A stretch of 64,000 nt of DNA from Tachypleus tridentatus (Eukaryota), in NCBI RefSeq assembly GCF_004210375.1, contig NC_134837.1, forward strand, positions 230,505,567 through 230,569,566. Reading direction: 5' to 3'. Both the position numbers and the translations under genes were made by a program. Positions 16,677 to 64,000 of the stretch are shown piece after piece; the first letter of the stretch is position 1, and each line of letters begins with the position of its first letter. The notes under the pieces are model-generated. The model made no database searches and was not told the origin of the DNA. It saw only the letters and a list, made by a program, of their open reading frames with translations.

Positions 16677-17350
16677 TCAGTATCTAAAAGGTGCACACGC
16701 TTTGTTAATTTCGCAAAAAAACAAAGAGAATGGTTTAAGTCCTGCAAGCAATCTGTCACACTCCTTGATCTTCGTCATAGATTGTGACAACACTAAATTC
16801 AATCTTTGCGTCATATAATGAATAAAGAGAGCTTTTGTGTATTTATCTATAACTTTCTTTAGAAGCCCATTCAGCTCATTGAACATCACGCTTGCCCCAT
16901 CATAGATTTGTGCAACAACTTTTGACCTAATATTTAATTCAGCGACTAAATAAACACTATTTTGGATAAATCTACAGCTTTTCGATGTGCACTAACATTT
17001 GTAAACTACAGAAATCTATCGTAAATTTCACCATCTTTAGTTACATGTCGTATAACACTAGAAAGCTGAGAAATGGTTATTGCGTCAATAGTTTCATCTA
17101 AGGTAAGATCTACAGGGAGATAATCACATATTTCGCTTTTAATTTTATTCAACAATACTTCTCCTACACAATTAATGAGGTCATTCTGCATTCTATTTGA
17201 CAGGCTAGAATAAACACTTGATATCTCTAAATGGGATTTAAATAATGGATCATATTTCTTACACAAATTTACCAATTCCACATAATTGTCTCGATTAGTA
17301 GATTCAAGTGATTCATTTTTACCTCTAAATGCTAATTGTTTTTCACACAA
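16677..17350 (-). pseudogene. Fragment of a ZMYM1-like or DUF4371-type hAT transposase.
   Basis: ORF 17006..17350: LAFRGKNESLESTNRDNYVELVNL…SHLEIS…YSSLSNRMQNDLINC. ORF 16677..16889: …HYMTQRLNLVLSQ, matching the hAT CxxH / AHxLNLV motif. Confidence 0.55.
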
Positions 17351-18026: not shown

Positions 18027-19410
18027 TTGGGTTGAGGAATAATTCGTGAGCGTTTTTTCAAGTTAAAAAAATATATTCATATATGAAACGCTTTCCCAAA
18101 ATATTTCATGTCATTTGGTAGATAATTTTTTGCTCTAACAGATGGTGTGTTTGACTTTCATATGTCTTTAATTTTTGCTTTCATTTTCAGTTCATTAAAT
18201 GGAATGTCAAGTGGACAAAATCGAGCATTTTCGACACCATCTGCTTTACGCATTTAATCGAGGTGTTAACGCCGCCGAAGCTGCTCGTGAGATCTGTTCT
18301 GTGTATGGCAAAGGAGCAATGCCTGAAAGTACCGCCCGCCGTTGGTTTTCGCGCTTTAAAAATGGGAATTTTGATCTGAAGGACGGGTCACACACTGGTC
18401 GACTAACTATGTTTGATGAAGAGCTTTTTCACAAAACTCCACGTCACACGACTAGAGAATTAGCGGAGCAGATGGATTGTGATAAAAAAACTGTGGTGAA
18501 CCACCTTCGTTCAATGGGCAAGGCTCAGAAACTCGGCGCTTGGGTGCCACACTGTTTGAGCGAAAAGAATAGAAATCAGCGCATCACAATTGCCGCCAGT
18601 TTGCTTGCTCGACATCGCTCAACACATGGTCACAAGGAGCGCTTTCTTTATCGCATCGTCACTGGCGATGAAAAATGGTGCCTGTACATCAATATGAAGC
18701 AGCGTAAAGAATGGCTCAGCCCCGACAAAAAAGCGACTCCTCGAGCAAAACGAGACCTCCATCCTCGAAAGACTATGTTGTGTGTATGGTGGAACTGGGA
18801 AAGCATAATCCATCACGAACTGCTTGGGCGCAACCAAACAGTTAATGCGGAGCTCTACGTTAAACAACTGCACCGACTTAACGAAGCAATTCAGCAAAAA
18901 AGACCAAATCGACAAAACAGTGTTCTTCTGCAGCACGACAACGCTCGTCCTCACATCGCCAATATGACCAAAGCAGCGATTCAAGAACTTAAATGGGAAG
19001 TGTTGCCTCACTCCCCATATTCGCCAGACTTGGCGCCATAAGATTTTCATCTCTTTCGATCGCTTTCGAATGCATTGCGCGGCGTATCGTTCAATAATGA
19101 CGTGGAATTGAGCGCTTGGTTGGACGAATTCTTTGAGTCAAGACCGAAAGACTTTTATCGCCGAGGCATTGAGAAACTTATTGAACGATGGGAGGAAGTT
19201 ACCAACAACAACGGAGATTTTATTGTTGACTAATTTCTTGCAATTTCGTTTAAAACAATGCATACTATATACCTAGGTATTACATGAAATAAAGTATCAT
19301 AATAAATGTTTTGGGTGTAATGTGTTCATGCATTGAAGTATTGTATAGTCTTGCATGTAATGCTTGAATGAAATTATTTAAAAACGCTCACGAATTATTC
19401 CTCAACCTAA
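18027..19410 (+). mobile_element. mariner-like element (Tc1/mariner, Hsmar1/cecropia-like) with ~30-bp terminal inverted repeats and TA target-site duplications.
   Basis: 5' ITR TTGGGTTGAGGAATAATTCGTGAGCGTTTTT at 18027. The 3' reverse complement TTAGGTTGAGGAATAATTCGTGAGCGTTTTT ends at 19410. TA lies at 18025-18026 and 19411-19412. Length 1384 bp. Confidence 0.9.
18199..19242 (+). pseudogene. mariner transposase with the DD34D-type motifs LLQHDNARPH and HSPYSPDLAP. It is about 346 aa and interrupted by a single in-frame TAA (LAP*DFHLF) at 19042-19044.
   Basis: ORF 18199..19041 continues in frame after the stop to …WEEVTNNNGDFIVD*. The sequence shows the classic mariner signature. Confidence 0.9.
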
Positions 19411-21020: not shown

Positions 21021-21026
21021 TTTATT
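21021..21026 (-). promoter_or_regulatory. Polyadenylation signal AATAAA overlapping the TAA stop of the terminal exon.
   Basis: Minus-strand sequence …GAA AAG TAA ATAAAAATGAGC. Confidence 0.5.
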
Positions 21027-21028
21027 TA

Positions 21029-22084
21029 CTTTTCATTCTGTACGTTGAGACGTCTTCCAAATATGTAAGCTTTATGAGGCCGTGCAGACAATGCACCATT
21101 ATCTTGAGTAGCATGTTGGGAGAATTGATCCAAGTTCCGCACAGGTGACACTGCTACCGAAGGTGAACGGTATTGGCTTGTGGCTAGAGGTGGCACTGCT
21201 ATCGAAGGTGAACGGTATTGGTTTGTAGCTGGAGGTTGTGCTGCTACCGAAGGCGAACGGTATTCGCTTGTAGCTGGAGGTGGTGCTGCTTCCGAAGGTG
21301 AACGGTATTGGTTTGTAGCTGGAGGTGGTGCTGCTACCGAAGGCGAACGGTATTCGCTTGTAGCTGGAGGTGGTGCTGCTTCCGAAGGTGAACGGTATTG
21401 GTTTGTAGCTGGAGGTGGTGCTGCTACCGAAGGCGAACGGTATTCGCTTGTAGCTGGAGGTGGTGCTGCTTCCGAAGGTGAACGGTATTGGTTTGTAGCT
21501 AGAGGTGGCGCTGCTGCCGAAGGTGAACGGTATTGGTTTGTAGCTAGAGGTGGCGCTGCTGCCGAAGGTGAACGATATTGTTTTGTAGCTGGAGGTGGTG
21601 CCGCTACCGAAGGTGAACGGTATTGGCTTGTGGCTGGAGGTGGCGCTGCTACCGAAGGTGAACGGTACTGGCTTGTGACTGGAGGTGGCGCTGCTACCGA
21701 AGGTAAACGGTATTGACTTGTAGCTTGAGGTGTCGCTGCTTCCGAAGGTGAACGGTATTGGCTTGTAGCTGGCGGTGGCGCTGCTTCCGAAGGTGAACGG
21801 TATTGGCTTGTGACTGGAGGTGGCGCTGCTACCGAAAGTGAACGATGTTTGCTAGTGGTTGAGGATGGTTTGAAACGGGCAGGATTAGGTTCGACTTTCA
21901 ATTTTTTCTCATCTCTGGGATCCGGAAACGTATATAGATCATTATTTCTTTTAAAATAATTTTCAGAATTGCCACAGTTTACATTGTACCACCACTCACA
22001 GACGAAGGACAACTGGTTATAGACAGTACCATTTGGACAAAGAAAGCTTTGCATACGACCTTGAGGACTACAATGATGATACAA
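21029..22084 (-). CDS. Terminal coding exon: the C-terminal half of the CBM14 domain (LYHHCSPQGRMQSFLCPNGTVYNQLSFVCEWWYNVNC), then about 16 15-aa tandem repeats YRSPS[EV]AAPPPAT[SN]Q, then a short unique tail and stop.
   Basis: The minus ORF 21026..22084 is preceded by the acceptor gtatatttttag|TTG TAT CAT CAT TGT. It is in phase 0, matching the phase-0 donor at 32474. Joining the exons yields C-x14-C-x5-C-x10-C-x12-C-x7-C with conserved aromatics, which is the peritrophin-A spacing. Confidence 0.65.
21149..21847 (-). repeat. Coding tandem repeat with a 45-bp unit (15 aa), about 16 copies, and a 90-bp higher-order structure. Several 90-bp blocks are identical at the nucleotide level.
   Basis: Direct reading: ggtggtgctgctaccgaaggcgaacggtattcgcttgtagctgga… repeated. 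The protein alternates the …SEAAPPPATSE and …SVAAPPPATNQ units. Confidence 0.9.
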
Positions 22085-23037
22085 CTAAAAATATACAACC
22101 GTTTATTGATATTTTGTATAGGCTGAATTATTTAAGTCACAAGCATAAATAAAACAAAGTACGTGATTTAAAAATATATATGTAAAAACGACTCTACAAG
22201 TAGGTTTTCTCGACATCACTGAAAAGTATATGATTTAAATGGGAATTTTATAAACAAAATTACTTATTCTGCAAAATATAGGTTATGTATTGGAGTATGT
22301 TAATTGAAAGGTTATTTTGCTAAGCATCTGTGACAGGTTCAAGCATGATAAAAAAATGTTATTTAAAGTCCAAGACTTATATTGTATGGTGAACGATGTC
22401 AAATACAAAGTGACTTCTTCCTTAATATATCTGTAATTTAATTAAAACTCGTAAGCAGACATATCTGTCCATATCTTTAACAGCAAAGATTCACATTCCA
22501 CTCTGGACATATATGTTCTAGTCATAATATCACAATTCTCAAACATAAAGACTATAAAAGTACCATGATAACGTCACAAAATAAACTTAGTATCTTTAAT
22601 GTGTTCAATGAATTAGCCTAATTGCCATTTCTTGTAACACTACAGATACTCCGTCAACAACTTGAAAATGATAAATCTCCCAAAGAATGCACCCAATTCC
22701 ATGATAATGGAACTCTGAGCCTTCTATGCCAATATACCACATTACTTCGAATTTAAGATGCTTTCTTATTTAGGATGCACCCCACTTTTAAGAAGGGATT
22801 TTTCAGAAAAAAAAAGGATGATCATTAGAAAGGAGTAAATACGTTTTATAAGAGTTTATTAACGAATAAAAAATGTTAATAATGTAATTAAAATGAAATA
22901 TAATAAAATATACAGGAATTTTAAAGTTTTCATTAAAATAATGTTTCTTTAATCAGAATGTTACTTCGATGTTTCTTTTGACCCACTGCAATATTCTGAG
23001 GTTGAAACATCTTCATCACTTGATTTATTACTGTCTC

Positions 23038-23160
23038 AGACCTCCGCTAGTACAGCGGTATGTCTACGAATTTACAACGCTAAAATCATGGGTTCGATTC
23101 CCCTCGGTGGGCTTAGCAGGTAGTCCGATGTGGCTTTGGTATAAGAAAAAAAACACACAC
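23038..23160 (+). mobile_element. SINE family 2a copy, lying inside the gene's intron.
   Basis: cctccgctagtacagcggtatgtctacgaatttacaacgctaaaatcatgggttcgattcccctcggtgggcttagcaggtagtccgatgtggctttgg. Confidence 0.8.
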
Positions 23161-24977
23161 ATTACTGTCCTAAAGAATGTAATTTTGTGTTCCATCTTCA
23201 AATCTGACGGAAAATTTTCACTACTTGTTGTCCTTCCCTGTAATGATAACCTTTTATTTTCATAAATTTCTCACACCAGTCACGATAAACCTTGAAAGAA
23301 AGACTAATATTTCCTGCACATTCTTTCACTTTTAATATTAATACTTCTCTCATTACAGGCAAGCCTTTATTTCATAACTCTCTAAAAGACGGTAAAAAGG
23401 TAGCCTCAATTTCAGTTTTTTTTTCTCATCTTGGGCCAGAAAATGGCTTTGTACTTTTCTTGCAAGAAAACAAGTTAGTTTTCATACCACACCAACGACG
23501 TATCTTTGCCTCATACACTTTTTACTTTTTACCGGCTGCACGATTTCCAATGTGTTCGACGTACAAAATAACTTTTCTTTTAAATTTAGCATCGTACGTA
23601 AAACGCTCTTCATGGGTAAAAAACTCAATAAAAAAAGCATCTGAACAACAGGAAAGTCAGAAAAAGACTGAGGACAGTGATATACAACTACGTCGCTAGA
23701 GGCGCTGATATCGGCAAATTAGACATTTTGTACGTGTTTTTTTAGCCTTTTTAATCTAAGTTATTTTTAAAATATAGTTCAATCTGTTTGTTAGTGCAGG
23801 AATTTTTCGAAAATCTTTGTTGTTCGAGAAAAATGATGTTTTCCAGACTTTCGAAGAGTGAAAAATAATACTTCGAATTTAAGACGCACCCTAATTTTGA
23901 ATTCGGAAAAAATGTGAAAAAAAAGGTGACTCTTAAATTTGAAGTAATACGGTAATTACAACATAAATATACATTGTATCAATAACAAGAAGACTTAACG
24001 GGTCATCTCTATCACCAGTACTCAATATTTTTATATGGAGCGTTTCGAAGATTATGCCTTCAAACAGTCGCGACTCAGGAAGCGATTCATATATATTGAC
24101 TGTATATTTGCAATACAGCTACACTTCACAGTCAGGATTTAGGAATTTAGGAAGATTCTGAACAAGTGATATCCAGGAATACAATTCACATTATGAAAAG
24201 TAAAATATTATGATCACTAAAACACGTTACTCGTATACCATAAGAGTGTGCATAAAACATGTATCAGCGGATAAATACCTCACTTGAACGTGGAACAAGC
24301 ATAGTAGTGTGAAGGGGAGCATCACAGACTTCCTATTCATTAGAATGAATAATATTTGTTTGACAGAAGACGATCAGAAGAATGAGGAAAAACACATTGT
24401 TACAGCTCTCTTTGAAAAAAGATACCTTGAAATTTAGGTAAATGAAGAAAAGAAAAATAAGAATCATAAACAGAAGGAAAATTACACTGAAAATTTTATA
24501 AGAGTATGCAAATAACATAAAGTCGGAACAGTAATGAGAAACCACAAAACAAAACAATCGCAATTAGTATATTGAAACCACTGAAATACCCGAAATAAAG
24601 ACAAAACAACATTTTCAGCCTCCTTTATGAAAGTGGGCTCTAGTAAATGGGAGAAACAAAAGGCAGGATCAGAAAAAATAATAATTATTGGAATACCACT
24701 CTAATAGTGGTACCTACCAATGGACACAGCCTTTATAGTGAAAAAAAATATGAAAATGGTTGGGTATGAACTAAACACAAGAAAACTAATGATAAAAGGA
24801 GTTTTCTACATTCACTTGACCGATAACACGCCAAAGGAACGCAATAAAAAATATAACAAACGATTCAAATAGTTAATTCCATGTTCTAATGGACGAAGAG
24901 CTTAGGCAAATGGGTAGCAAAACTTTAATTATAACTAGCCGCAGTTTAAGTTCTGACTAATAACACCACATATAATA

Positions 24978-27329
24978 CAGTGGTACCTCGGTTCTCGAAC
25001 GACTTTCTTCTCGAACAATTCGGTTTTCGAACATATTGTTTGAGAAAAAAAATGTCTCGGTTGTCGAACATAAACTCGGTTCTCGAACCAAGTGTCGTGG
25101 CCCGAAACCCCGAAATAACCCGACTGATGACCCGAACGACCCTTCGACCATTTTTGGCCCGCACCAAGCTTGCCCAAAACATTTTATCCGCACCTGTCGC
25201 TCAGTCCACACCCCTGCTAAAATCTGATGTGAACGTTCTCGTTTTTCTTTTTTTCTTCTAAATATTCTGATTAAATAAGCAACCATGGGGTAAAAGAAAT
25301 ATAATGAAATCAGCAAACCAAAAAGAAAAGTAGTTAGAGCCACAATAGAGGTGAAAAAAGATCTCACAGCCAAGTATGAGAGTGGTGTTCGCGTGTCTGA
25401 CCTTGCTAAACAGTTTGGTATGACGAAGTCCACACCATACTGAAAAATAAAAAGGTCATCAAAGGAGTTGATGTTGCAAAAGGAGTGACAGTGCTTAAGA
25501 AACAAAGATCACAAACAATGGAAGAGGTAGAAAAACTGTTGTTGATTTGGGTAAACGAAAAACAGTTAGCTGGTGATAGCATTTCTTAGACCATCATTTG
25601 TGAGAAAGCAAAGCAGTTGCATGCTGACCTACTAAAAACACCCCTGGAATAAGTGCTGATACAAGTGATGCCTTTAAGGCTAGTAGGGGGCTGGTTTGAA
25701 AAATTTCGGAAGAGAAATGGCATACATAGTGTGGTGAGACATGGGGAGGGTGCCAGTTCTAACAAAGACGCTGCTGATAAATTTGTTAGGGAATTTAAGG
25801 ACTATCTAGAAGCTGAGGGTTTTATTCCCCAACAAGTGTCAACTGTGATGAGACAGGCCTCTTTTGGAAGAAAATGCCAAAGAGGACCTACATCACGAAG
25901 GAGAAGTCACTGCTAGAACACAAGCCAATGAGGACAGGCTAACTCTATTGTATGTAGTAATGCAAGTAGAGACTTAAAACTTAAGCCTTTGTTTGTGTAC
26001 CATTCTGAGAACCCGAGGATTTTAAGAAAATAGTCTCCGGAAAAGTAAACTAAATGTCATGTGGAGGGCTAATAGTAAAGCATGGGTAACCAAACAATTT
26101 TTTCTGGAGTAAGTCCATGAAGTGTTTGCTCCAAGTGTAAAGAATTACGTCACGGAAAAACAGTTGCCACTCAAGTCCCTTCTTGTGATGGACAATGCAC
26201 CTCCTCACCCACCAGACTTGGAGGACGGGTTGGTGGAGGAGTACAGTTTCATTACAGTGAAGCTCTTGCCCCCTAACACGACTCCCTCATTCAGCCCATG
26301 GAGCAGGTCATATCGAACTTTAAGAAACTCTACACCAAAGTACTGTTTCAAAGGTGCTTTGAAGTGATCTCTGACACAGAGTTAACACTTACAGAGTTCT
26401 GGAAAAAATCACTTTAATATCCTCCATTGCTTGAGGATCATATAAAAAGCCTAGAGGGAAGTGTCTTTGATGACCATGAACTCAGCCTGGAAAAATTGTG
26501 GCCAGACTCAGTAGCAGGTAGAGACTTTGAAGGCTTGAATGTAAGTGGTGATGATGTGGAGGAGTTGGTAAAAGACCACAACACTGAGCTCACCACGGAA
26601 GAACTCCAAGATTATCAGAAGGAGCAGCAACAGAAGGCAACTGAGGAAGTGTCTTCAGAGGAGGAGGAGGGAAGGGAGGATGTTCCTAGTTCACTAATCA
26701 AGGAAATGTGTGGAAAATGGGGAGAGTTACAAAGTTTTGTGGAAAAATTTCACCCTGACAAAGCTGTAGCAAACCGCAGCATAAACCTTTTCAGTGACAA
26801 TGCCATGTCTTACTTCAGAAACATTTTAAAATGTAGGCAGAAACAAACCTCATTAGACAAGGTTTTAGTGAGAAATAGTTCTAGTGAGTCTCAAGCAGGT
26901 TGTAGTGGTGCAAAGAAACATAAAAGAGAAAGAACCCCAAAAGGAGAGTTATTTGACGTTTTAATGGAAGGTGACTCCTCTTCCAAACAATAATAACCTT
27001 CCTACTCTCCACGTTCCTCACCACCTTTCACTTACGCCATCAGCTCTCCTCAGCACAGGTAAAGTGTAGTTAAATTTTCATATTATTGTTTTTTTTAATT
27101 GTGTTTATAGTTTTTGTTGTTGACTTTATGCATGTAAGTATTATTATACAGGTATAAATAAGCAATATTTTTACCTAAAATGCTTCATAATGCGTAATTT
27201 TTGGAGGTCTGTAACACATTAATTTAATTTACAGTATTTCTTATGGGAAAAATTGATTCGGTTTTCGAACAAATCGGTTTTTTAACAGCCTTTTGGAATT
27301 GATTAAGTTCGAGAACCGAGGTACCACTG
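24978..27329 (+). mobile_element. Tigger/pogo-family DNA transposon with TIRs, TA duplications and internal subterminal direct repeats of the form cggttctcgaac / cggttttcgaac.
   Basis: CAGTGGTACCTCGGTTCTCGAAC at 24978. Its reverse complement ends at 27329. TA lies at 24976-77 and 27330-31. Confidence 0.85.
25270..26993 (+). pseudogene. Tigger/pogo transposase, frameshifted. It has a CENP-B-type N-terminal HTH, GWFEKFRKRNGIHSVVRHGE (HTH_Tnp_Tc5), the DDE-region motif LVMDNAPPHP…LPPNTT, and an acidic C-terminal tail.
   Basis: ORFs 25653..25916, 26122..26367 and 26427..26993 lie in different frames. The motifs match tigger-derived proteins. Confidence 0.8.
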
Positions 27330-27949
27330 TACTTCTTAAACATTTCCCTGAAGATAACATCAACCTGGCAGTTGTAACTTAGACTATAAATTAATTATCA
27401 TCTAGTGAAAAGTTAACTAATTATTAATTAAGTTACTAAGAGTTAAGTCTACTAAACACGACAACGACAAATCTACTTAATTCTTATAATATATATTAGA
27501 CATTACAGAATATCAAATACAAAGTATACAGAGGCTGAATACGTTATTTGAAATGACTTTGGAGCCTCACCACATTATTAAATTAAATATCACTAACTCC
27601 CCATCTTGGCAATAGATATACAGCATAGTTTCTATTGCAAAGTGGTCCGTCATAAGGTTTTCATTCAAAGCACACACCTCTTTCCAACCTGCTGATTTCA
27701 ATAATGTAGCTAGTATACGATGTAACAGATTTACTTTATACATTTATTTTAGTGCATAGACTTGTTTCATTATAGTTTTTAGTTTGCATGTGATGTATAT
27801 TCTTGACTGGGTATTGTGCAAGTACAACCTATTATCGAAATTTGTAAAACATTCACGTGCGTAAGAATCAACAATATACTAGATGCATATATAATAATAG
27901 AGATTGACAGTTTTGTCACGAGCTTTGGTAAATATTCTGGAGTCTCGCG

Positions 27950-28258
27950 TGATTGATGTATAAAAACCGACCAGTCGAGAGAAAGAGTGTTATTGTTGGA
28001 AAGCTACAATCAGTATGTGCTATAAGCCTAGGAAGCTAGAATTGTGATCAACGTTTATTGATCGGAAAACCACAAAATTTGACCAGAGACATTACAACTT
28101 TCAAACATAAGAAACAGTTCAACTTCAGTGAATTACTTTGGACCTTATTATTTCCATAAGGACCTCAAATATTTTTGCTGGAATGAGTCATCTGGTATAC
28201 AGTGTGAAGCCAGCCAAGAAAAAGACACCATTAACTTACGCGAGTCATAACAGTATTA
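27950..28258 (+). repeat. ~300-bp sequence that recurs at 31235..31500 at roughly 75% identity, flanking the gag-pro-int fragment. It may be an LTR or leader remnant.
   Basis: The two copies align by eye (ataaaaaccgac.agtcgag … gtgaagccagccaagaaa…). Confidence 0.5.
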
Positions 28259-28528
28259 GTTTGTTTTGAATTTCGCGCAAAGCTACACGAGGGTTATCTA
28301 TGCTAGCCATTCCCTAATTTAGCAGTGTAAGACTGGAGAGAAGGCAGCTGGTCATCACCGCCCACAGCCTGCTCTTGAGCTACTCTTTTATCAACGAAGA
28401 GGGGATTGATCGTTACATTATAATGCTCCTAGCTGAAAAAGCGAGCATGTTTGGTGTGACGGGATTCGAACCTGCGACACTCACATTACGAGTCGAGTGC
28501 CTTAACCACCTGGCCATGCCGGGCCACG
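28259..28528 (-). mobile_element. SINE family 1 copy with an 11-bp target-site duplication TAACAGTATTA.
   Basis: The duplication lies at 28248..28258 and 28529..28539. The copy is inserted just after the ~300-bp LTR-like repeat. Confidence 0.9.
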
Positions 28529-28949
28529 TAACAGTATTAACTCAGAATTAATTTGCTCGTCATGGATGTGGACCATCGATAAAATATTCAGTTTTAAGCC
28601 GAATATAAAACTTAGTATAGTTTGTAACTTTGTAAAACCCTTGTATATAAACCATCATTTGTAATATTTATTAGTAATAATAGTTATTATAATTTGTATT
28701 GTTTTTTACTGTGTATTCAAATATATTTCTGTTAAAAAGAAAATTGTATCAATCTTGTTGGCAAATAACATAAATTTAACTAACTACGAAATTCAAATTA
28801 AAATTTCCAGTTATATGGAATAGTAATACCTAATTATGTAACATAATAGATCGGAGATTTGTTCGAAATAAATTATAATACGTAACATAATAAATTGGGG
28901 GGTCGTGTCAGAAATATGAACCAGAGATAAAATTTGTTCTAAATTAAAA

Positions 28950-31190
28950 TTCAAATCTTAATACGATTTATATTAATCAGTGCCGACAAGACTTGATCAT
29001 GTCCGATTGTCAAAGTCTTATTGCACCATTCTCCCTTGAACAACTAGAAAAATATAACAGAAATAAATTGCTTGAAATTGCCAAAATTTTAGAATTAGAT
29101 GTTAAAAATCAATGAGAAAAACAAACTAAAAAGTATATTGTTGAAATATTATCGACGATGATTTGTTGTCTGAGGAAGCATTAGGAGAATATTCTAGCCG
29201 ACCAAAGTTGAGTGATGAAGATATGTTAGAAATCCAATTAAAACTCAAACAAATCGGGCTTGAACAAGCCTGCATCGAAGCCCAGAAAGAGAAAGTCCGT
29301 AAACGTCTAGAGGCAGAACAAGCCCATATCGGGGCCGAGAAAAAACAAGCTCTATTGAAGCAAAAACGGAAATTAGGCTGAAAGAAATGGAAATTAGACT
29401 CATCTCTGATCGATCAAGACAAAATGACAACTTTTAATTCAGTCGATATATTAAAGTATCACCCTTTAATCAAAATGAAATTGATAAATATTTCTAGCAT
29501 TTTGAAAAAGTTGACAAAATCGTGGAATGGCCCACCGAAAAATGGTCATTATTATCACAGAGTATTTTGACTGGTAAAGCAGTAGAAGCTTATGCTGCTC
29601 TGGCTTTAGAAGATAGTATAGATTATGATAGGATTAAATCAGCTATACTCGAAGCATATGAATTAGTACCAGAGGCTTATCGCCAAACGTTTTGAGGTTA
29701 TTACAAGCAAGATAGTCAAACGTATATGGAATTCGCCTACGAGAAAGAGGTTTGTTTGATTTATAGTGTAATTATAAGCATATTGGTAACAGTTTTGACA
29801 AACTAAGACAATTTAGACAAATTATACCTAATTGAGAAATTCAAACACTGTACAAGTGATTACCTCAAAACTTATTTGAATAAAAGAAAGCTGAAACACT
29901 ACAGGAAGCAGCTTCTGTTCCTAATAATTACACCTTAACACAGAAGACCACTTTTCATTAAAAAAAATTCTTGTCATCTTATCACAAACCAATATATGTC
30001 CGATCCACTAAAGTTGAGGATTCTTCTAAAAATCTATGGTTCGAAATTCTCAGACAGTCATTATACTTCATCAAAACCATCAAAGCCTGTTTGTTATTTT
30101 TGTAAAAATCCTGGTCATGTTATGCCCGATTGTTGGAGTTTAAAAAGAAAAAAGAAAAGGATGCAACACTTACTGCGTTTGTGTCCGCATACGGACGTAG
30201 TTTCACTAGATCACATGATATCGTTTATTTGGCCACTGCTAAAAAGGGTGATGCAGCTAGAGAGGAATTTATACCTTTTATGTCTGTTGGTTCCGTGTCT
30301 TTGACAAAAGCCACTGCTAACTCCATACTTATACGTATTTTACGTGATACTGGAGTATTCCAATCATTGTTGTTAGAAGGTGTATTATCTTTAAACTTGA
30401 GCTTTGTTACTGGTGAGTCTATTATTATTCAGAGTATTGAGGGTGGTTTTATTAATGTCCCTCTTCATTACTTTTGTTTCATGCCAGACCTAGTTTTGGG
30501 ACTAGTTGTGGTTGGAGTAAGACCTACCCTACAGTTCAGGGTGTATCATTATTGTTGGGAAACGATTTAGATCGGGGAAAAGTTGTTGCCGAACCCAAAA
30601 TGGGTAGCGAGCTGATCACTGTTTCATCTAAGGATAACGTTGTTGTTCAGGAGAATCCAAAAGTGTTATTAATAAATTAAGCTGAAAACAAACGATAGAG
30701 ACGTGTTCAGAAAATAACATTATCGATTTAATCACAGACATTTTTTGGGTCTGACTTGGATTTTCTGGATGATTATTCTACTGAAAATTCTTTAATGAGG
30801 TGCAATAATAGACGTGATGGATCTGATTCGTCTGTTCAAGTTCCCTTTGCTAAAAGCATACTGATCCACGAGCAAGAAAAGGATCTGCAGATCTCTTCCT
30901 TATTTAACTGTGCACTTCCAAAAGATAATACGGATAAAGTTCCTAATGGTTATTTTTGCAAAGATAATGAGCTCATGAGAAAATGGAGCCCACCAAATGT
31001 ACAAGTTCCAGAGGAAGGGGCAATTTAGTGTTTTAAAACCATATAATTCGGAAATATTGAAAGTTGCCAATAAACTTCATATTGGAGCTCATTTAGGAGT
31101 CAATAAGATGTGTGAAAAAATTATGGGACATTTCATTTAGCCCAAAAATTAACTAAAGTGTTTCTTCCTTTTGTGCAATTTGTCATATAT
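28950..31190 (+). mobile_element. Internal fragment of an LTR retrotransposon. It holds a gag capsid-like region, a CCHC zinc knuckle, an aspartic protease (DTG) and the N-terminal HHCC part of integrase. Reverse transcriptase and RNase H are absent, and there are several frameshifts.
   Basis: Capsid-like region WPTEKW…LVPEAYRQTF at 29527..29694. Zinc knuckle CYFCKNPGHVMPDC at 30089..30130. Protease motif ILRDTGVFQSLL with DTG at 30346..30354. Integrase N-terminus ILKVANKLHIGAHLGVNKMCEKIMGHF at 31055..31140. Confidence 0.65.
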
Positions 31191-31234
31191 ATTAATTGGC
31201 TGGAAAACTTAACCAGAAAATTTCTGCTACCATA

Positions 31235-31500
31235 AAAACCGACTAGCCGAGCTTACTATTGAACAACTACAATCATTGTGCTATAGACTTAGGAAGGTAT
31301 AATTGTGATTAACGTTTATTAATAGGAAAACTACATAATTTAATCAGGAAAGTTATAGATTTCGAACATTACAAATCGTTAAACTTCAGTGAAATACTTC
31401 GGGCATTAGAGTTTGTACGAGAACAGTAAATATCTTTGCCGTAAGGAATCAGCGTTCACCCGGTGTGAGGCCAGCCAAGAAAGTGACAAATTCCATTTAT
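31235..31500 (+). repeat. Second copy of the ~300-bp direct repeat, the partner of 27950..28258.
   Basis: See the partner entry. Homology ends near 31500. Confidence 0.5.
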
Positions 31501-32473
31501 GGAAACACGTGGTTATGTTACCACCGGTAAATCATTTTTATAAGACGCAACTAATTCTCTATATAGATAAAACCCTGGAATATATATTGATTACAAAGTT
31601 AATCACTGTACACAGACTATATTATAGGTTGGAATATGTCAAACATGAATTTACTTATTTTTCTCTTGATTTTAATACATATTATAGTAAGCGAAACAGA
31701 AGTACATTTACTTTATAAGATGGGTATTGTACGCCGAATTATGTCAGCATAAAGATAAAGATTCTTATTTTACAGAGTAGGCTATGTAAACAAAGCGCTA
31801 CTTAATGTAGAATGTTGTATATCAAAAACTTATTTTACGCATTCTGTATCGCAAAAGTGTTGAAGCATTACTACTGATCTTTAACTTACACTGCACAACA
31901 AAGTTTTTGCTTCTTGAACACTGTTGGGTGTTCCTTATAGATTTTTGGCTGCTGATCACAAAAATCACATCCAAATTTGCCCATCACGTACCGTTTCATC
32001 TAAATCTTGGTTTCACCAGGACATTGCTACAATGGAAAAACGATATCAGGGCAACTGGAATCCATCAATGCTTTTTGACAACTGTTGGACACTGCAACGT
32101 GATGCACCGGACATTGAATACAAACGAAAATCAGGAGCAAAACACTTTTAATTATATTGAACTTAATAGCGTATTAGAAACATAAACGCAATTAAATACG
32201 TTATTGCCGGTAAACAGTTAACTGTCTATTTCTCAGAGTTTCTATGTGATGAAGCAAAACCAAAACTATATTTGTACACACCCACCAGGTACCTGTCACA
32301 ATCAGCAAAAACTTTTCAGGAAACAAAACTTTTCAAAAAAATGGTTGTGCAGTGTCTTTTATATTTATAAACTGTATTATAATTTTTGTTAAAAAATACT
32401 TACCCAACCAAAATAATCGTTCTTTATCATATTCCGCGTATTTTTCAATAATAGCTGATAAAGACACGTTACC

Positions 32474-33747
32474 TGACATCTGTGTTCCACACTGGCGTAG
32501 AATCCAGGCAATTTATCCTCACAAGTAAAGGAAGTTCGTGGGATATTCGAAATAGTAGGGTAGTCGCTTCCAGCCTTCCCGGGGATGGCACTCAGGTCGC
32601 CTTCTATATCAATAATAAGCTGATCATCAAAGTCTTTATCCCTATTTGATTTAGTTTCTTGTATTTGACGTTGTTGTTGACCGTAACTTCGTGGAAGCTC
32701 TGAGACTTTGTATCTTACAGTTGGTATAGAGACTGGTTTTTGTTCTTTAGGATTTTTCCTGTAAAATGTATTTTGTAAAGATGTGTGTTGAACAAATGAT
32801 TCTTGGCTTTCATCTTTGTATTTCTGGACAGATGGTCGCTGTGGTGTTACTTGCTGGAACTTAGGAGTTGATTGAGGGTTAGCCTTTTTAAGCTGGGGAG
32901 TGGTTTTCTTTAAAACTGATTCAGGACTGTTAAGAATCACTCCATGCTGCTGATGTGAGCCTTTGGCTATTGGTATCAATAATTTATTACTTTTAATGGA
33001 ATGTTGAGTTGAGAAATATGACTGCTGATTTCTTTTAAAATAACTTTCCCGTGTAGGCTGTAGCAGTGTGATTTGCCTTGTTGGAATGTCAGCGTTTATC
33101 CTTTTTTCGTCATTTAAAGAATGTTGAGCAAAAACATGTATAGGACGTCCTAGCTGTGATATGGGTTTTCTGCTGAATCTGTCATTCTCTACTGACTTTA
33201 CTTGTGGAATCGGTTGTAAAGAACTAGTTTCTTCTTCATTGTTTTCTTTGTCATCTTCGTTAGTGAGAGAGTATTGTTCAAAGAAACGAAGAGGGCGCTT
33301 TTGCTGTGTGGAATTTTGTCGAAGGCTGTCATCTTCTACAGTCTGCACTGGAGGAGTTTCTTGGTTTGGTCCACCCACTGACTCTACAAAGAGTGGTATG
33401 TGTGAGATCTGTACTTGAGGTGTGGTAGATTGCTTGGCAGTGAAAGGTATTTGTAACTGTTTTGGTGGTTGAAATGTTAGTTCAGAGTCAGGTTGATGGA
33501 AAGGTTCAGGTGATTGAGTTGGCGAACCATTAACATCTGTATTTGGTTGCTGTACAAATATAAACTGTTTCTCTTCTTGGATCTTTTCTTTGGTCTCCTT
33601 CACAGATCCGTTATCTACTACTCCACTGACTGGTCCTCGACTGAATCTGATGACGACATTAGCAGGTCGTAAGAATTTTGCTCTCGGGTCATTTGGGTCA
33701 AGATCAGGAGGTTGATACCTGTAACTGAGATCCAGAGGCTTGTAGGG
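32474..33747 (-). CDS. Internal coding exon of a peritrophin/mucin-like gene. It is a long Q/P/S/T-rich low-complexity region ending in the N-terminal half of a chitin-binding peritrophin-A (CBM14) domain (…SFTCEDKLPGFYASVEHRCQ). The exon ends at a GTAACG donor.
   Basis: The 455-aa minus ORF 32389..33756 supplies the reading frame. The minus-strand sequence ...CAC AGA TGT CAG|gtaacgtg gives a canonical 5' splice donor directly after Cys-Gln. The upstream boundary is either the ATG at 33756 or the acceptor tctgtttatgtttcag|CCC at 33748. There is no signal peptide, so a 5' exon is missing. Confidence 0.6.
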
Positions 33748-36700
33748 CTGAAACATAAACAGAATGTGAAAACAGAGTCAAAACGAGACAGAGTGATTTA
33801 TATACAGTAGTTTGAATTAATGTATCATGTGCTATGTGTGTTTACTTTACATCAGTAACTAAATATTTCTAATTACAGTAAGGAATTGTTACCACCAGAG
33901 AACAATATACTTAAATTTAAACTGACAAGATACAGAAAATTCTGACATATTCTAAAAGTATGTACTAAAACTTAATGATTTAAATAATGATATAACGTTG
34001 CTGTTTTGGTTTGGTTTGTGATCTTAAAACTCTTTACTTTGACATCAACTTACTTGAATTATCTCAACAACAGTATCGTATTGTAGCACAGAAAAAATGT
34101 CGAATCAAGTTTTCTGAATGTTACAAGTTAACAAATTATCTACCTAGATTTATCATTTAGTATTAAAATAATATTATTATCCACTTTTCTTCTTTACTTC
34201 TTTACAGGTGAAATGAGTAAATGTATTTTTGCATATTTTTAATATTTTATGTGTCGTTCGTTAAAAATATCGTAGAGAAAAGACATTGTCAAACACAGTC
34301 ATACAATACTTGTAATCCGCGATTCGAATCTCGTAACTTTTGCAAGTGAAGTAATAAATTTTTCCTATCATATATTTATGTTAGATATTTGATCAAAGCT
34401 GTACAAAAGCTGTGCTAGCCGTCCAAGATTTTAAACAAATAGCCTCGAGGGACGCAAGCTAGCGCGTAGCACCCACCCCAACTCTTTGGTTGTTCGTAAC
34501 TGAATTAATCGTTCATTAAGACATTTTTTAAACTATTCCGACCGTCCAAAGTATTCACATTAATTCTGGTTTAATATAAATGTAAAATTTAAAAAAATAA
34601 ACGACAATGCTTGAAACCAACTGCTAAAACTACAGAATATTTACATATATGTGAGTATACTTACTAAGATATCCTGTCCCTTGATTAAGCCTAATCCTAT
34701 GATTCCTAAAAAAGAAAGCAATGGTAATGTTTGAGAATTAAACATCTCATATGTTTAGAATATCAAAACCATGTTAGAACTTTAAGATATCCATTTATAA
34801 CTTCTGTAGTATTTGTATGTTTTGTATAATATGAATACAGGAGACAAAATGAATTTTATTATGGAGTAGGTCATCTGGGTTGGACATGAGATGGATTTTA
34901 TAACGAGAACTTTGAAAGTGCATCAGATATAACCTTTTTTTATGTAGAGTTCCACCATGTTCAAATGTCAAATGGTAAGAACAAAGCTATTTATTAATCG
35001 CGAGTATACGGTTTCTTAAGCATATGCTTTTTAGCGAAGAGTTAAATTAATATATAATTTTTGCGTTCAAGAAAACAAATCTTACTTTGAATTTACCCTT
35101 GTTAACTGCTGAATAAAAACAGCTTGGTTACGGCTTTTTAACGCTAAACAAATTAAAACTTCGTCCGTAGCAAATGCCACAAAAACTTTGATTAAATCTG
35201 TAGCACTCATTAAAACTTCTAATCTGAGATTATAACATTTGACAAAACAATAAAAAAATATCAATATGTTTATGTGTTTACATATATATAAAAGTTTTGA
35301 TATTAAAGTACGAAAGAAAAGTAATCGTGAATATTTAAATCAGAATTTTCAGCATAAACAGCACCTTATTCACACAGACTAAACGGAAAGATAAGAAACA
35401 CCTGAATTTTAGGCATTAAAGTCCCTAATTTTTAGCTACTTACCAGAGCAAAGGCAGCCAGTTTGCAGAAGTTACAATCACAAGTGTTCTTTCTGTGTGG
35501 CTTTTTGAACCAAATAACAAGACTGATGCTACTTGTTAGCAATTGAAATCTTGAGACCTCTTCAATGGCATTGCATCTCGAACGTTAGGCACTTCGATAC
35601 GTAGCTCAGTACATTAACTACTATACTATGTCCATTTCCAGTAGTCGTGGATTTTACGTACATGAAGTATAAGATTAAGGAAATGATATCTAAACTTACA
35701 AGAACCCGCAACCAATGTAATAACTATTAGAATTCAAAATTATGATAAAAAGACGATGTTTCTGTTATTATTTCTATGCACTGAAACTATTTTTCACCCA
35801 ATCACACGCTTCATTATTATAATTGAATAAATATATTTATTATTATAAATATAACATGCGAGACAAAAATTGGGTTTCTCTATGCATCAAAGATGTAGGC
35901 AATGTTCCGCACTTCAGGGTTGTTGGATAACAAAAGGCCAATAGTTTGTGAGGATTTCTGCTGATTAACTTTATTCCTTCTAGAATATTACTTTAAAATT
36001 AGGGAAGACCAGCGTAGATGAATGATCCTCTCGCCAATAACCAAAAAATGAAAAAAAAAACATTACTGTCAAGTTGAAGATTTTAAGAAAGAGAGTTTAA
36101 AAGCACACTTTTCTTATTTTTACAAAAAATAATATTACCACAATGTTTGCGAAATAAATTTCCTCAAGAAAAGTTAGCAAGGTTAAAATAACAATTAAAA
36201 GTTATTTTAGAGTAAATATACAAACCAAGAAGAGCACAAAATGCAGTTCTCATGTTTCTCCGTTTGTGTGTCCTCCAACTAGGTTCTGTCTGTAAAATAG
36301 GATAAAAGGGTATGTCAAGTACATATTCAGGTAGGTCCACCCAATTCTTGCGCACAACCTTGATCTAAAGTTGATTTAAACAGAACTCATTGACCGACCG
36401 TTTCGGTCATTTGCCCATGACGTTGTTATCACTATATATTGTTCTTATTTCCCATTTTGACATTCACCTACATGCAATATCAGTCTAACGTAATTTATGT
36501 TTGTAGGTTATAGTAGAGGCGTTTTCAGACGAGTACTAGAAAATATCTTAATTTGGTGATGAAGACTTTATCTGGGTTGTTATGTAAACAAGTAAACTCT
36601 GTTAATCATAGCTATTCGATTAAGTCAGTCACAAACATTTCTCTCTAGCTGTATCTATTATAGGTCACTGGTATTTGTTCTAGAAAATATGGAGACAAAC

Positions 36701-56559: not shown

Positions 56560-56790
56560 TTGATCGTAATTCTAGAAACAGAAGGTTTGATGGTAATTCT
56601 AGAAACAGCAGGTTTGATGGCAATTCTAGAAACAGCAGGTTTGATGGTAATTCAAGAAACAGCAGGTTTGATGGTAATTCTAGAAACAACATGTTTGATC
56701 GTAATTTTAGAAACAGCAGGTTTGATCGTAATTCTAGAAACAGCAGGTTTGATCGTAATTCTAGAAACAACAGGTTTGATCGTGTTCTGT
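56560..56790. repeat. Minisatellite with a 27-bp unit (taattctagaaacagcaggtttgatgg), about 8.5 copies.
   Basis: Read directly from the sequence. The ORFs on both strands here are repeat artefacts. Confidence 0.9.
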
Positions 56791-58249
56791 AGTTAGTCCT
56801 AACTCCATTTTTTTTAGATAAAGTTCAGCTTGTAAGTGTCATTATGTATTTGTGAACGTAACTCGGGGTTTGTAGACGTTATTTAATATTTGAATAAGTC
56901 AGGAAGTATTTGTGGCCGTTATTTAATATCTGTGGTCATCGTACGGTGTTATTAAACAACCCTAGGTGTTTTAAATCGTCTTTTGCATTCTATTCCTTCA
57001 CACGATATTTCGAAACTGAGAAATAAACTGAAATTAATATAACTTAAGACAAAGTAAAAGAGTTAAAGAAAACAAAACATATACAACAGTAAAACGAACA
57101 AAACAGAAAAAGAATAACAAAAACTGGTTATCAAACAAGTAGAATGTATTTAAGACTAATTTAGAAAACAGGTAAGACAAGCTTACGAGACAAGATAAAA
57201 ATAAAAACAGTTTAAAGAAGAAAAAGACGTAGTCAAACGAAGTTTCTAGTTTTAGGAAAATAAGAGCTTGTTTTTAAGATATTCGCAAAGCATCATACTT
57301 TGAACGTTTCGAGCTTTCCTTAAGCATCTTAGTGAAATAACAACTACTGTTTATTAGAAACATAAATTCAAGTAAAGAATTGTTTTTAAGATAACTTTAG
57401 TATTTTGCTAAACTAGGTCAATAACGACTTGGAGTATTTTTAACTTTGTAATTTAGATATTGCAACTGATATTAATTGTAGCTTTTAAGTGCCGCACACT
57501 CGTTTTATAATATACAAATAGAATATCTGAAATGCAATTATTTGCGTTCAAAAGAAGTATTCACGTGCCTCGTGAACACCAAAACAAAACACAAAAACGT
57601 TCAGTATCTAAGCGGTATTTAGTACAGAGTACGTTGTGATATCAATTAACAGCCTTAGAGACATAACTTATAAAATGTCAGTTTTTCTTGATATCCATTA
57701 GTAGCCTTTGAGACAGAACTTGTAAAATTATGCTTGCTGAAAAACTAGAATACCGTATAATCAATTAGAATAGTCTGTGGCCAATTAATAGCCAAGATTT
57801 ACTTCAGTGAGATCAGTGGCCGGTTATTAATTAAAATTCAAACTCCATTTGTTGTCAGTGTCCAGTTGTTAGCTCAGTGTCAGACTCCAGCTAAGCACAT
57901 TCACCAGTTTGTTATGGCGTTGTAACTTTGTACTCATTACATACTTTGTTTGTCAGGTTTGTTATTATTATTTTCTTAATTGCTATCACAAAATTGGTAT
58001 AAATAGAATGAACAACAAAACCGAAAGACAAAATGCAGGTATTGTTATAAAAGCAACATTCGAGATTTAATGTTGTTACACACATATAAATATTTGAGTA
58101 GATGAAAAAACTTCTTTAAAAGCTGCAGCATAATAGTGCTAAGTAATTTAACTACTCAATCAAGGAGATCAGTGATGGCCAACCAATAGAAATCTCCCTG
58201 TAACTTAAAAGAAATAAGTTAGCAGCATAAGTGGATCGCGAGTGTTCGT

Positions 58250-58860
58250 TATATCTGTAAATGATAATAACAGGTGATAATACAAGTGATAACAACAGAC
58301 AAAGTGATATCTGTAACTGGTAACTGCAGGCCAACTGATATTTGTAACTGGTAGCAGCAGGCTAAATGATATCTACAAGTGATAACAACAGACAAAGTGA
58401 TATCTGTAACTGGTAACTGCAGGCCAACTGATATTTGTAATTGGTAGCAGCAGGCTAAATGATATCTACAAGTGATAACAACAGACAAAGTGATATCTGT
58501 AACTGGTAACTGCAGGCCAACTGATATTTGTAACTGGTAGCAGCAGGCTAAATGATATCTACAAGTGATAACAACAGACAAAGTGATATCTGTAACTGGT
58601 AACTGCAGGCCAACTGATATTTGTAACTGGTAGCAGCAGGCTAAATGATATCTACAAGTGATAACAACAGACAAAGTGATATTTGTAACTGGTAACTGCA
58701 GGCCAACTGATATTTGTAACTGGTAACTGCAGGCCAACTGATATTTGTAACTGGTAGCAGTAGGCCAACTGACATCTGTAACTGGTAGCAACAGGTCAAC
58801 TGATATTTACAAGTGATAACAACAGGCCAACTGATATATGTAAATACAGGTGTACTGTTG
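58250..58860. repeat. Minisatellite with a 93-bp unit built from three diverged 31-bp subunits, about 6 copies.
   Basis: gtgataacaacagacaaagtgatatctgtaactggtaactgcaggccaactgatatttgtaactggtagcagcaggctaaatgatatctacaa repeats. Confidence 0.9.
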
Positions 58861-61800: not shown

Positions 61801-63768
61801 GGAATTATTAGGTTCTCTGTCAGGCATCAGTTGAATACCACACTTCCACATTATCCAGTAAGAAAAGTACTGGCAGCTCAAATATCGCCCTTTAAATGTT
61901 ATTCCTTAAGTTATTTGAATGAATTTAGTGCAAAAATATGTGTAATGCAAAATGAAAACAATATTTATTTATTCACAGAGATTTTTAAAACACAGTGTGT
62001 GTACTTGCTTTCTGCTTACTGGCTGGTTACTTTTTATTGGACTCTTGAATCTGTCAAGTTGCTTTCTTTACTCATGATGTCTTTCCACCAATCAATTATC
62101 TTAAGAACCTTCGTAACGAACAAATCTAGCATTTTTATTTAACTGGAAATGATGGAATAATCCACGTGACTTCATTATCATTCAATACAGGAGAGAACAT
62201 AACTTTTAAATATTATCTAGTCTATCATTAAATAATACCGTATACATCTAGAATTTACGAAGAAATCAAACATTCTATTTTAAAACAAGAAAATAAAAAA
62301 TCATAGTATGTTTACAAACGACATATTTTCTCTACTTTTTGTTTTAGGCTTGTTCTCAAGCCAACATTTAAGTTTTACTTTAAAACCAGCAAATACATAT
62401 CACATGGATGATACAACCATTGAACAAAGAATTAAAACTCAAATCATTTAACTATGGATAGGTTAAAGTGTGCATTTCGAGATCGTTTAAAGAATGATAT
62501 TAAACATTTATTTAAAATGCTTTATTATTAATGTATATAAATTAACTTAGTATCAAAACGTAGCTAATAAATCACATTCTAATGTTATATATTTTAAGTT
62601 CTAACTTTATAAGAAAATATTTGAGTAAATCTAAAATTTCTCTTAATATGAAAATTGTGACATGACATTTATTCTCCAGATCTTCTTTAATTTATTTATC
62701 ACTCTTCTTACAAATTTTATAGCATTCAGTCTTTTTGTTCATGGAGTCATAAACTAGAAAAGCAGAGCCATTTTCAATGCCAAATCGCCAAATCTTCTCT
62801 TTTACAGGTTGGTAATGCTTCTCTCTGATGCTTTGTATTATATAATTGATATTCAACAGAAAGGCAAAACATTACTCTATCAAATAATGTATAATGATAT
62901 TTTGTGTTTAATACAGAGTATTATCAATTTTATCTTGAGCTTGAAGATTGATTCTTATGGTGTTCAGACTGAGCAGCTAAGGGAATCATTTTAAGACTCT
63001 CTTGTCTTAGAAAGCCAGTTAGTTTATACAGAATTATAAAATATTGTTTGATTTGTGCGTTATTATTTTGGGCTCTTAGGCTCATTATTTAAGAACATAA
63101 AAAAACAATGTACTAGTACCATCATATCAAAATGTAGGTTTACATTTCATCAGAAACTGAGAGCAAACAAAAGCTAGATTTTGTAAAATAATATATATAA
63201 TAAAAACTATTATTAACTGGCTGTGTTTGTTCCCGAGCAGCTCGTGCATTGCGTCATTCAATACTGTCATGTAAGATAAACATTTGCTGAGAGGTTTAAA
63301 ACTTGTGTGTTGTGAGAATTAGTTAGACATGGTCCAAAGGACAATAAACCAGTAAAATTAGGAGTCTTAAGTTATTTAAGATAAACAGCTTTCGTTTTGT
63401 CACGACCTGTAGTCATTCTGGAAAACAGGATAATTTAGGCTTTTTTAGTATTTTAATGGTGGTTAATAGGTCGATCAGATCGACCAAATTCAAGTAGAGT
63501 TAGACTAGAGAAAATAGCATATAAGGTTCCAATGACAAAAATTGTTTGCTATTTATTTTGCAGGTTTTAGAAATTAAGCAGATGAAATCTAAAGATTTTC
63601 AATTGTAGAAAGGTATTTTTCATTTTAACATGAAAATCACTTTGCACTAGGTGCAGTCAGTATTCTGACTTGATATCTTCGTAGGCAAATGTTTAGTAAA
63701 AATATTTAATTTAAAACAACGTACTTCTTTCAGTGGAGAAGAGTTGTAATGTAATGAAGATATGTGTG

Positions 63769-64000
63769 TAACTTTAACATTCTGTTTATAGTTCTAGTAT
63801 GTATAACCTTAACATTCTGTTTATAGTTCTAGTATGTATAACCTTAACATTCTGTTTATAGTTCTAGTATGTATAACTTTAACATTCTGTTTATAGTTCT
63901 AGTATGTATAACCTTAACATTCTGTTTATAGTTCTAGTATGTATAACCTTAACATTCTGTTTATAGTTCTAGTATGTATAACCTTAACATTCTGTTTATA
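63769..64000. repeat. Minisatellite with a 35-bp unit (gtataaccttaacattctgtttatagttctagtat), at least 6.5 copies, running off the window end.
   Basis: Read directly from the sequence. Confidence 0.9.

Follow-up and report, generated by a model that had tools for sequence, protein, structure and literature searches.

A coding 45-bp tandem array in the terminal exon of LOC143239437 of Tachypleus tridentatus and its possible role as a repeat tail on a chitin-binding protein

What a short and nearly perfect DNA repeat contributes to a protein is the question raised by a locus of the horseshoe crab Tachypleus tridentatus. The window, that is, the whole stretch of DNA analyzed here, comprises 64,000 nucleotides (contig NC_134837.1, positions 230,505,567 to 230,569,566 of the forward strand), in which an initial annotation made from the letters had described a 45-bp/90-bp coding tandem array. 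It has to be asked whether this array is translated, to what kind of protein it belongs, and what the encoded repeat may do. As described below, the array is contained in the fourth and final coding exon of its gene, and we are confident, on the sequence evidence, that it encodes the repeat tail of a secreted protein with a single ChtBD2 domain. Our overall reading, to which we give a probability of roughly 60%, is that a lineage-specific, non-globular repeat tail is attached to a chitin anchor and acts as a cross-linking arm. The cross-linking role of the tail, taken specifically, is drawn by analogy and is proposed tentatively.

Analysis with Tandem Repeats Finder, the check proposed in the initial annotation, confirmed a single strong array at 21143..21844 with a period of 45, 15.6 copies, 89% matches, 0% indels, and a score of 1054. 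A 29-nt unit core, for which up to three mismatches were allowed, matched 16 times within 21144..21847, always on the minus strand and at exact 45-bp spacing, and gave 0 matches in 100 shuffles and 0 elsewhere in the 64-kb window. The earlier estimate of about 16 units was thus replaced by a count of 16, exactly spaced and free of indels. The coding strand of the array is the minus strand, and the units in coding register run from 21847 to 21128.

21128..21847, minus strand: coding tandem array of 16 units of 45 bp (15 amino acids), corresponding to amino acids 528-767 of the protein

The unit consensus is TACCGTTCACCTTCGGTAGCAGCGCCACCTCCAGCTACAAGCCAA (= YRSPSVAAPPPATSQ). Unit 1 reads HRSLSVAAPPPVTSQ, units 2-15 conform to the type YRSPS[EVAI]AAPPPAT[SNK][QE], and unit 16, YRSPSVAVSPVRNLD, is half-degenerate and resembles the repeat only up to 21149. 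This position, at which the array had been said to start, is accurate as that of the final repeat-like codon. It had also been claimed that each unit carries one Tyr, one Arg, and a PPP core, which held for Arg in 16 of 16 units and for Tyr in 15 of 16, whereas the PPP core is present in only 10 of 16. The repeat contains no Cys, as had been noted, and also no Gly. It is rich in Pro, Ala, and Ser, and its 15 Tyr (one per 15 residues), 14 Gln, 17 Arg, and 1 Lys give a basic sequence with an isoelectric point of about 10. The GC content of the array is 55%, as compared with about 33% for the AT-rich window.

The open reading frame (ORF) that contains the array opens after a canonical acceptor (TTTTTAG) and matches positions 18-53 of the CBM_14 profile (E = 3e-6). 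A tblastn search with the first homologues placed the first half of this domain in an exon 10.4 kb upstream, with CAG at its end before the donor GTAACG at 32473. The resulting gene model sums to exactly 800 codons plus the stop, and its introns are of the GT..AG type.

36253..21026, minus strand: whole gene, four coding exons
36226..36253, minus strand: coding part of exon 1, with the ATG and MRTAFCALLG, ahead of the donor GTTTGT
34665..34705, minus strand: exon 2, 41 nt, end of the putative signal peptide, ..IIGLGLIKGQDIL
32473..33747, minus strand: exon 3, 425 codons, Gln/Lys/Pro-rich predicted-disordered region and N-terminal ChtBD2 half (Cys1, Cys2)
22085..32472, minus strand: intron 3, 10,388 bp, GTAACG...TTTTTAG
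21026..22084, minus strand: terminal coding exon 4, 352 codons plus stop

Over its length, the spliced product shows 100% identity to P0005, the RefSeq entry XP_076336609.1 (LOC143239437, 800 amino acids). This entry is named 'uncharacterized protein LOC143239437' of Tachypleus tridentatus and contains the entire array. The ChtBD2 domain is divided by intron 3 at a point between Cys2 and Cys3, with CQ encoded before the intron and LYHHC after it. Exon 4 contains, in this order, the C-terminal ChtBD2 half (Cys3-Cys6), a linker of 37 amino acids, the array, a non-repeat tail of 33 amino acids, and the stop codon TAA at 21028..21026, which is overlapped by an AATAAA at 21027..21022. Since exon 4 carries the stop, the placement of the array in a terminal exon in the initial annotation was correct.

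The internal structure of the array was judged from the pairwise nucleotide differences among the 16 units. Units 9, 11, and 13 share one sequence, and units 10 and 12 share another, from which unit 14 departs by 1 nt. Two features emerge from these comparisons.

21218..21487, minus strand: higher-order block, units 9-14, three 90-bp dimers (YRSPSEAAPPPATSE plus YRSPSVAAPPPATNQ)
21488..21577, minus strand: units 7-8, YRSPSAAAPPLATNQ twice, 1 nt apart

In the block, the dimers 21487-21398 and 21397-21308 are identical, and the dimer 21307-21218 carries a single-nucleotide change (CCA>CAA, P>Q). The dimers are therefore 0 and 1 nt apart, as against 4 nt between the units within a dimer, whereas successive dimers outside units 9-14 show 10-25 nt differences, so that a higher-order period exists only locally. 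Units 7-8 represent a separate recent duplication of one unit. Differences of 3-9 nt separate the remaining pairs among units 1-15, and 14-18 nt separate the edge unit 16 from the others. Three statements of the initial annotation have to be narrowed by these results. It had reported several identical 90-bp double units, of which two dimers are indeed identical while the third carries a 1-nt change. The alternation over 30 amino acids that it took for a higher-order repeat is real in units 9-14, but these are only 6 of the 16 units and not the whole array. The very recent expansion that it deduced applies to the central part, with 0-1 nt between dimers, whereas the other units are older and diverged. 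A young centre with old diverged edges suggests unequal exchange or replication slippage inside the array.

The array is coding, judged from the predicted gene structure. The reading frame runs unbroken from the conserved half of the domain through the array and the non-repeat tail to the stop, the period is divisible by three, and there are 0 indels even among the old units. The description of the array as coding and in frame is thus upheld by the canonical acceptor, the second chitin-binding half, the stop, and the inclusion of the whole array in XP_076336609.1. A trivial explanation would be that the copy number and order of the units result from mis-assembly of near-identical 90-mers, or that the annotated coding sequence runs through an intron or untranslated region. 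Sequences such as identical 90-bp dimers are prone to collapse or expansion in short-read assembly, support at the protein level comes from a computational prediction, and other frames are open too. In addition, look-ups of the exact product in queryable assemblies and transcript records returned no match on record, and thus no contig encoding the product in the assemblies queried. Nevertheless, just 270 of the 720 bp are near-identical, and unit-specific differences elsewhere anchor the assembly. The frame continuous from the domain half behind its canonical acceptor to the tail and stop, as well as the indel-free period of a multiple of three, speak against such an error, and homologues bear comparable repeat tails at the same position. 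We therefore consider an assembly artefact or a non-coding array very improbable.

The 800-residue product is divided as follows.

Amino acids 1-19: putative signal peptide, hydrophobic
Amino acids 20-424: N-terminal region, Gln/Lys/Pro-rich (47 Q, 31 K), about 400 amino acids predicted disordered
Amino acids 432-485: one complete CBM_14 (peritrophin-A/ChtBD2) domain (Pfam)
Amino acids 491-527: basic linker, 37 amino acids
Amino acids 528-767: repeat, 240 amino acids
Amino acids 768-800: non-repeat C-terminal tail, 33 amino acids, encoded by 21029..21127, minus strand

The N-terminus, MRTAFCALLGIIGLGLIKG, has a grand average of hydropathy of 1.52 and was modelled as a single helix at amino acids 2-18; it is assigned as a putative signal peptide with no dedicated signal-peptide predictor behind the assignment. 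The CBM_14 match (PF01607) covers profile positions 1-53 of 53 with 41 bits (cut-off 22.1; E = 2.2e-10). The Cys spacing CX14CX5CX10CX12CX7C fits the ChtBD2 consensus CX11-30CX5-6CX9-24CX12-17CX6-12C (PMC7379184), and an alignment of 26 homologues shows no variation at the six Cys. The only Cys outside the domain sits in the putative signal peptide. The Pfam scan of the 800 amino acids gave one CBM_14 stretch, no further family, and no catalytic domain. The suggestion that the protein is of the cuticle or peritrophic-matrix type was accordingly right at the level of the domain. In an AlphaFold run with the 26-sequence alignment, the predicted local distance difference test score (pLDDT) exceeded 90 only at about amino acids 420-490; the block means were 77-87 for the putative signal peptide and 39-51 for the repeat, which was modelled without secondary structure. 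These values are consistent with a non-globular repeat tail, although low pLDDT on a shallow alignment is weak evidence of disorder. The C-terminal tail ends with ...HKAYIFGRRLNVQNEK and contains a single Gly-Arg-Arg site of the type used in cleavage and amidation of peptide precursors, which is probably coincidental.

Relatives of the repeat were sought by an exhaustive HMMER search of 1.84 billion representative proteins, with the repeat plus the tail as the query. The sole true match was the protein itself (E = 4e-149), accompanied by 53 weak hits. Eight of the best-scoring weak hits were inspected, and all were unrelated repeats of similar period, such as RPHKSLVAGPPLTDSD and TTIPKLATSDKQVPT. 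No relative of the repeat was matched in the PDB, and a literature search for the repeat strings YRSPS, AAPPPAT, and SQYRSP returned nothing relevant. Because the profile search gave no true relative, the repeat is taken to be lineage-specific, as far as visible in these sequences, and it is apparently undescribed. A word-indexed search was less informative. With exon 4 as the query it returned only four CBM_14 proteins, and with exon 3 as the query, aimed at horseshoe-crab orthologues or ohnologues, it returned nothing; the identical protein was missed in both. It was found only with the spliced query, and hence was missed in two of three runs. The lack of Limulus or Carcinoscorpius matches in this search thus carries no evidential weight.

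Homologues of the protein were retrieved from a pseudoscorpion, millipedes, ticks, many insects, a tardigrade, and crustaceans (barnacle, lobster, shrimp, amphipod, crab, and Daphnia). All of them have a single domain of the same subtype. Their post-domain tails are Cys-free and of low complexity, and are mutually unrelated in sequence and length. Tandem repeats with Tyr, Pro, and Gln occur in several of these tails, for example QQYNAPQAPS in lobster, PQQSYERP in a millipede, and 13-amino-acid units in a moth and a lac insect. When the Tyr residues of the post-domain tails were scored for a Pro at +3, this arrangement was found for 16 of 18 in Tachypleus, 8 of 15 in Panulirus, 7 of 11 in the millipede, 18 of 40 in P0019, and 8 of 16 in Halocaridina. 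Y-x-x-P is thus strongly over-represented in these five otherwise unrelated tails (Tachypleus and the homologues P0004, P0006, P0009, and P0019, among them lobster, millipede, and shrimp), although the nominal p-values exaggerate the enrichment because the copies within a repeat are not independent. Different repeat units seem to have amplified Y-x-x-P independently of one another. Its recurrence across unit contexts suggests that the composition and a short Tyr motif, as read from these sequences, are what is retained.

From these features the following role can be proposed. The cysteine-knotted domain would anchor the secreted protein to chitin, and the Pro/Ala-rich, Gly-free tail would project from it as an extended, unfolded arm. 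The evenly spaced Tyr in the Q-Y-x-S-P context, together with about one Gln per 15 residues, may serve as sites of covalent cross-linking into the chitin-protein matrix. The chemistry would be oxidative (dityrosine or quinone), transglutaminase-mediated, or both, and the Lys-rich N-terminal region of neighbouring molecules is a possible amine partner. Dityrosine formation and O-glycosylation, both put forward in the initial annotation, are suggested by the composition of the repeat. The copy number would set the reach and valency of the arm and is expected to be evolutionarily labile. There are precedents for both chemistries. Transglutaminase-dependent cross-linking has been reported for cuticular chitin-binding proteins of horseshoe crabs (summarized in PMC2956697), and in pro-resilin, Tyr-bearing repeats flank a chitin-binding domain and form dityrosine (PMC7737337).

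Several observations weigh against our reading. The coding assignment depends on the gene model and the RefSeq prediction. Two coding-strand frames are stop-free across the array and one plus-strand frame has only two stops; since other frames are also open, the length of the open frame is weak coding evidence, and we rejected it as proof of coding. The differences among the units comprise 8 synonymous and 15 non-synonymous variant states, where 29% synonymous states are expected (p = 0.5). This test gives no signal of purifying selection and does not single out the frame, as the other frames look similar. The tick homologues stop 5 amino acids past the domain and another homologue stops after 26 amino acids, which indicates that a tail is not essential to the family. 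Finally, the tail contains a single Lys, so that it could take part in a transglutaminase reaction as a Gln donor only.

Some of these observations would also be explained if the array were a neutral low-complexity expansion, that is, a slippage product which is translated and tolerated in a disordered tail and has no function that depends on its sequence or copy number. The lack of a synonymous excess among the unit differences agrees with this explanation, as do the homologue tails, which are unrelated in sequence and length and sometimes missing, the failure of the exhaustive search to find a relative of the repeat, and the prediction that the repeat region is unstructured. The pattern of variation within the array, however, speaks against it. 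The YRSPS block is near-invariant, with Y in 15 of 16 and R in 16 of 16 units, and the changes concentrate at positions 6, 11, and 14. The 45-bp period is exact, and 0 indels have accumulated over 16 units, including the old diverged ones. Moreover, Tyr-x-x-Pro is met again in distant homologues whose tails were built independently. A purely neutral origin is therefore regarded as unlikely, though it deserves serious consideration, and a tail with a cross-linking function is preferred.

This preferred reading can be extended to a more specific and bolder scenario. The tail may be an invention of horseshoe crabs, a basic, Gly-free Q-Y-R-S-P arm that transglutaminase, oxidative Tyr chemistry, or both would staple to chitin-bound neighbours, so that cuticle is built or repaired in the manner of the caraxin wound mesh. 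Its copy number would differ between individuals in 45- or 90-bp steps and tune the stiffness of the matrix. The arm would also exemplify an ancient cross-linking motif of arthropods, Y-x-x-P, with separate amplifications in chelicerate, myriapod, and crustacean members of the protein family. In this full form the scenario is speculative and improbable.

If the inferred role is true, the protein represents a compact natural design, in which one chitin anchor is combined with a periodic cross-linkable arm. The chemistry by which cuticle and clot are cross-linked in this animal has already been the subject of biochemical study. The single Arg per unit means that trypsin would yield uniform 15-mers (e.g. 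SPSVAAPPPATSQYR), which would ease the mapping of modifications and cross-links by mass spectrometry. That distant arthropods carry different Tyr/Pro/Gln repeats behind this domain points to selection on the composition and a short motif rather than on the sequence as a whole, a point of relevance to the evolution of structural matrix proteins. In other respects the feature is ordinary, a coding minisatellite in a gene that is already annotated but uncharacterized. Arthropod chitin-binding proteins, including those of the cuticle and gut lining, are well known to carry coding minisatellites in their low-complexity flanks.

The gene and its surroundings contain sequences related to transposons as well as further tandem arrays.

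26122..26367, plus strand: ORF fragment in intron 3, DDE_1, sub-threshold in Pfam
29996..30304, plus strand: ORF fragment in intron 3, zinc-knuckle, sub-threshold in Pfam
18199..19041, plus strand: Mos1/mariner-type transposase ORF, 280 amino acids, continuing to about 19233
17006..17350, minus strand: ORF fragment matching DUF4371 (E = 5e-10), probably a transposon-derived remnant
58281..58843: tandem array of 93 bp (3 x 31 bp), 6 copies, 93% matches
56560..56783: tandem array of 27 bp, 8.3 copies, 92% matches
63765..64000: tandem array of 35 bp, 6.7 copies, 98% matches, running past the end of the window

Because the Pfam matches of the two fragments in intron 3 are only sub-threshold, the presence of decayed transposons in this intron is weakly supported. 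The mariner-type ORF contains HTH_48 (E = 7e-22) and Transposase_1 (E = 5e-21) and is located about 2 kb downstream of the stop of the gene. The 93-bp array leaves a 180-amino-acid ORF open on the minus strand (58249..58791), which gave no credible Pfam match; it is probably a non-coding minisatellite.

Among known systems, the protein is CPAP1-like by its architecture and predicted domain sequence. CPAP1 proteins are cuticular proteins analogous to peritrophins with one ChtBD2 domain, which were defined in Tribolium and whose expression occurs in tissues that form cuticle and is absent from the midgut (PMC3504105). The Tachypleus protein resembles them in its putative signal peptide, its single six-cysteine peritrophin-A domain, and the long Cys-free low-complexity flanks on both sides of the domain. 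It shares the pattern ...DYP...P.T.F.C...G.YAD...CQ...C....SFLCPNGT.F.Q....C.WW.NV.C with the insect homologues. It differs from CPAP1 proteins in that it comes from a chelicerate and is placed by sequence, while expression in cuticle-forming tissue is part of the definition of the family; the placement is with the family as a whole and not with one of its subfamilies. In addition, nothing that corresponds to the 15-amino-acid YRSPS...Q repeat occurs in the homologues retrieved.

A mucin-like function represents another possible relationship. The tail would then be an O-glycosylated domain of the gut peritrophic matrix, of the insect intestinal mucin type, and would form a hydrated glycan brush. 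The peritrophin-A mucins (Drosophila Muc/Mur and insect intestinal mucins; PMC2515642) likewise combine this domain with a Pro/Ser/Thr repeat that is encoded by a single exon, labile, and lineage-specific. The repeat of the Tachypleus protein lies downstream of a peritrophin-A domain and contains 22.9% Pro and 23.8% Ser plus Thr, and mucins are known to arise when secreted proline-rich proteins gain exonic repeats rich in Pro, Thr, and Ser (PMC9417175). Published screening requires Ser plus Thr above 25% of the whole protein, or at least 20% together with Pro of at least 5% (PMC2515642). The whole protein, with 13.2% Pro, contains 17.5% Ser plus Thr and thus lies below both Ser plus Thr thresholds, and we rejected its identification as a mucin. 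A tandem repeat of 16 units of 15 amino acids is present, but it accounts for 30% of the protein, just under one third. Thr makes up only 6.7% of the repeat, and no 100-amino-acid window exceeds 29% Ser plus Thr. Tyr and Arg, which occur in nearly every unit, are atypical of mucin repeats, and the single chitin-binding domain differs from the multi-domain layout of many peritrophic-matrix proteins. A mucin-like role is thus doubtful.

The likeness to pro-resilin of Drosophila and to Cpr56F lies in the combination of a chitin-binding domain with short tandem repeats, in which Tyr occurs in Y-x-x-P and is surrounded by Ser and Pro. The A repeat of resilin is also 15 amino acids long (GGRPSDSYGAPGGGN). 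However, the chitin-binding domain of resilin is of the Rebers-Riddiford type, whereas the Tachypleus protein has no PF00379 match in Pfam and contains CBM_14 only. The resilin repeats are Gly-rich and elastic, whereas the Tachypleus repeat is Gly-free and rich in Pro and Ala, and its tandem array is found on one side of the domain only. A resilin-type elastomer was rejected on these grounds; one Tyr per short repeat is the only feature of that type which is shared. The Gly-free, Pro/Ala-rich composition makes a stiff extended arm more likely than a rubber.

Plant extensins provide an analogy only. They are secreted, extended, Ser/Pro-rich repeat proteins with periodic Tyr, which are oxidatively cross-linked into a polysaccharide matrix. 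They come from an unrelated lineage without homology, and their chemistry needs arabinosylation of hydroxyproline, which is not known from arthropod proteins of this type.

Caraxin, proxin, and stablin (summarized in PMC2956697) are horseshoe-crab proteins, from the same organism as the present protein, and are compared with it by their general properties. They are secreted, chitin-associated or proline-rich, and covalently cross-linked into meshes. These proteins are transglutaminase substrates of the cuticle and clot; the tail of the Tachypleus protein offers one Gln per unit and may be a candidate substrate.

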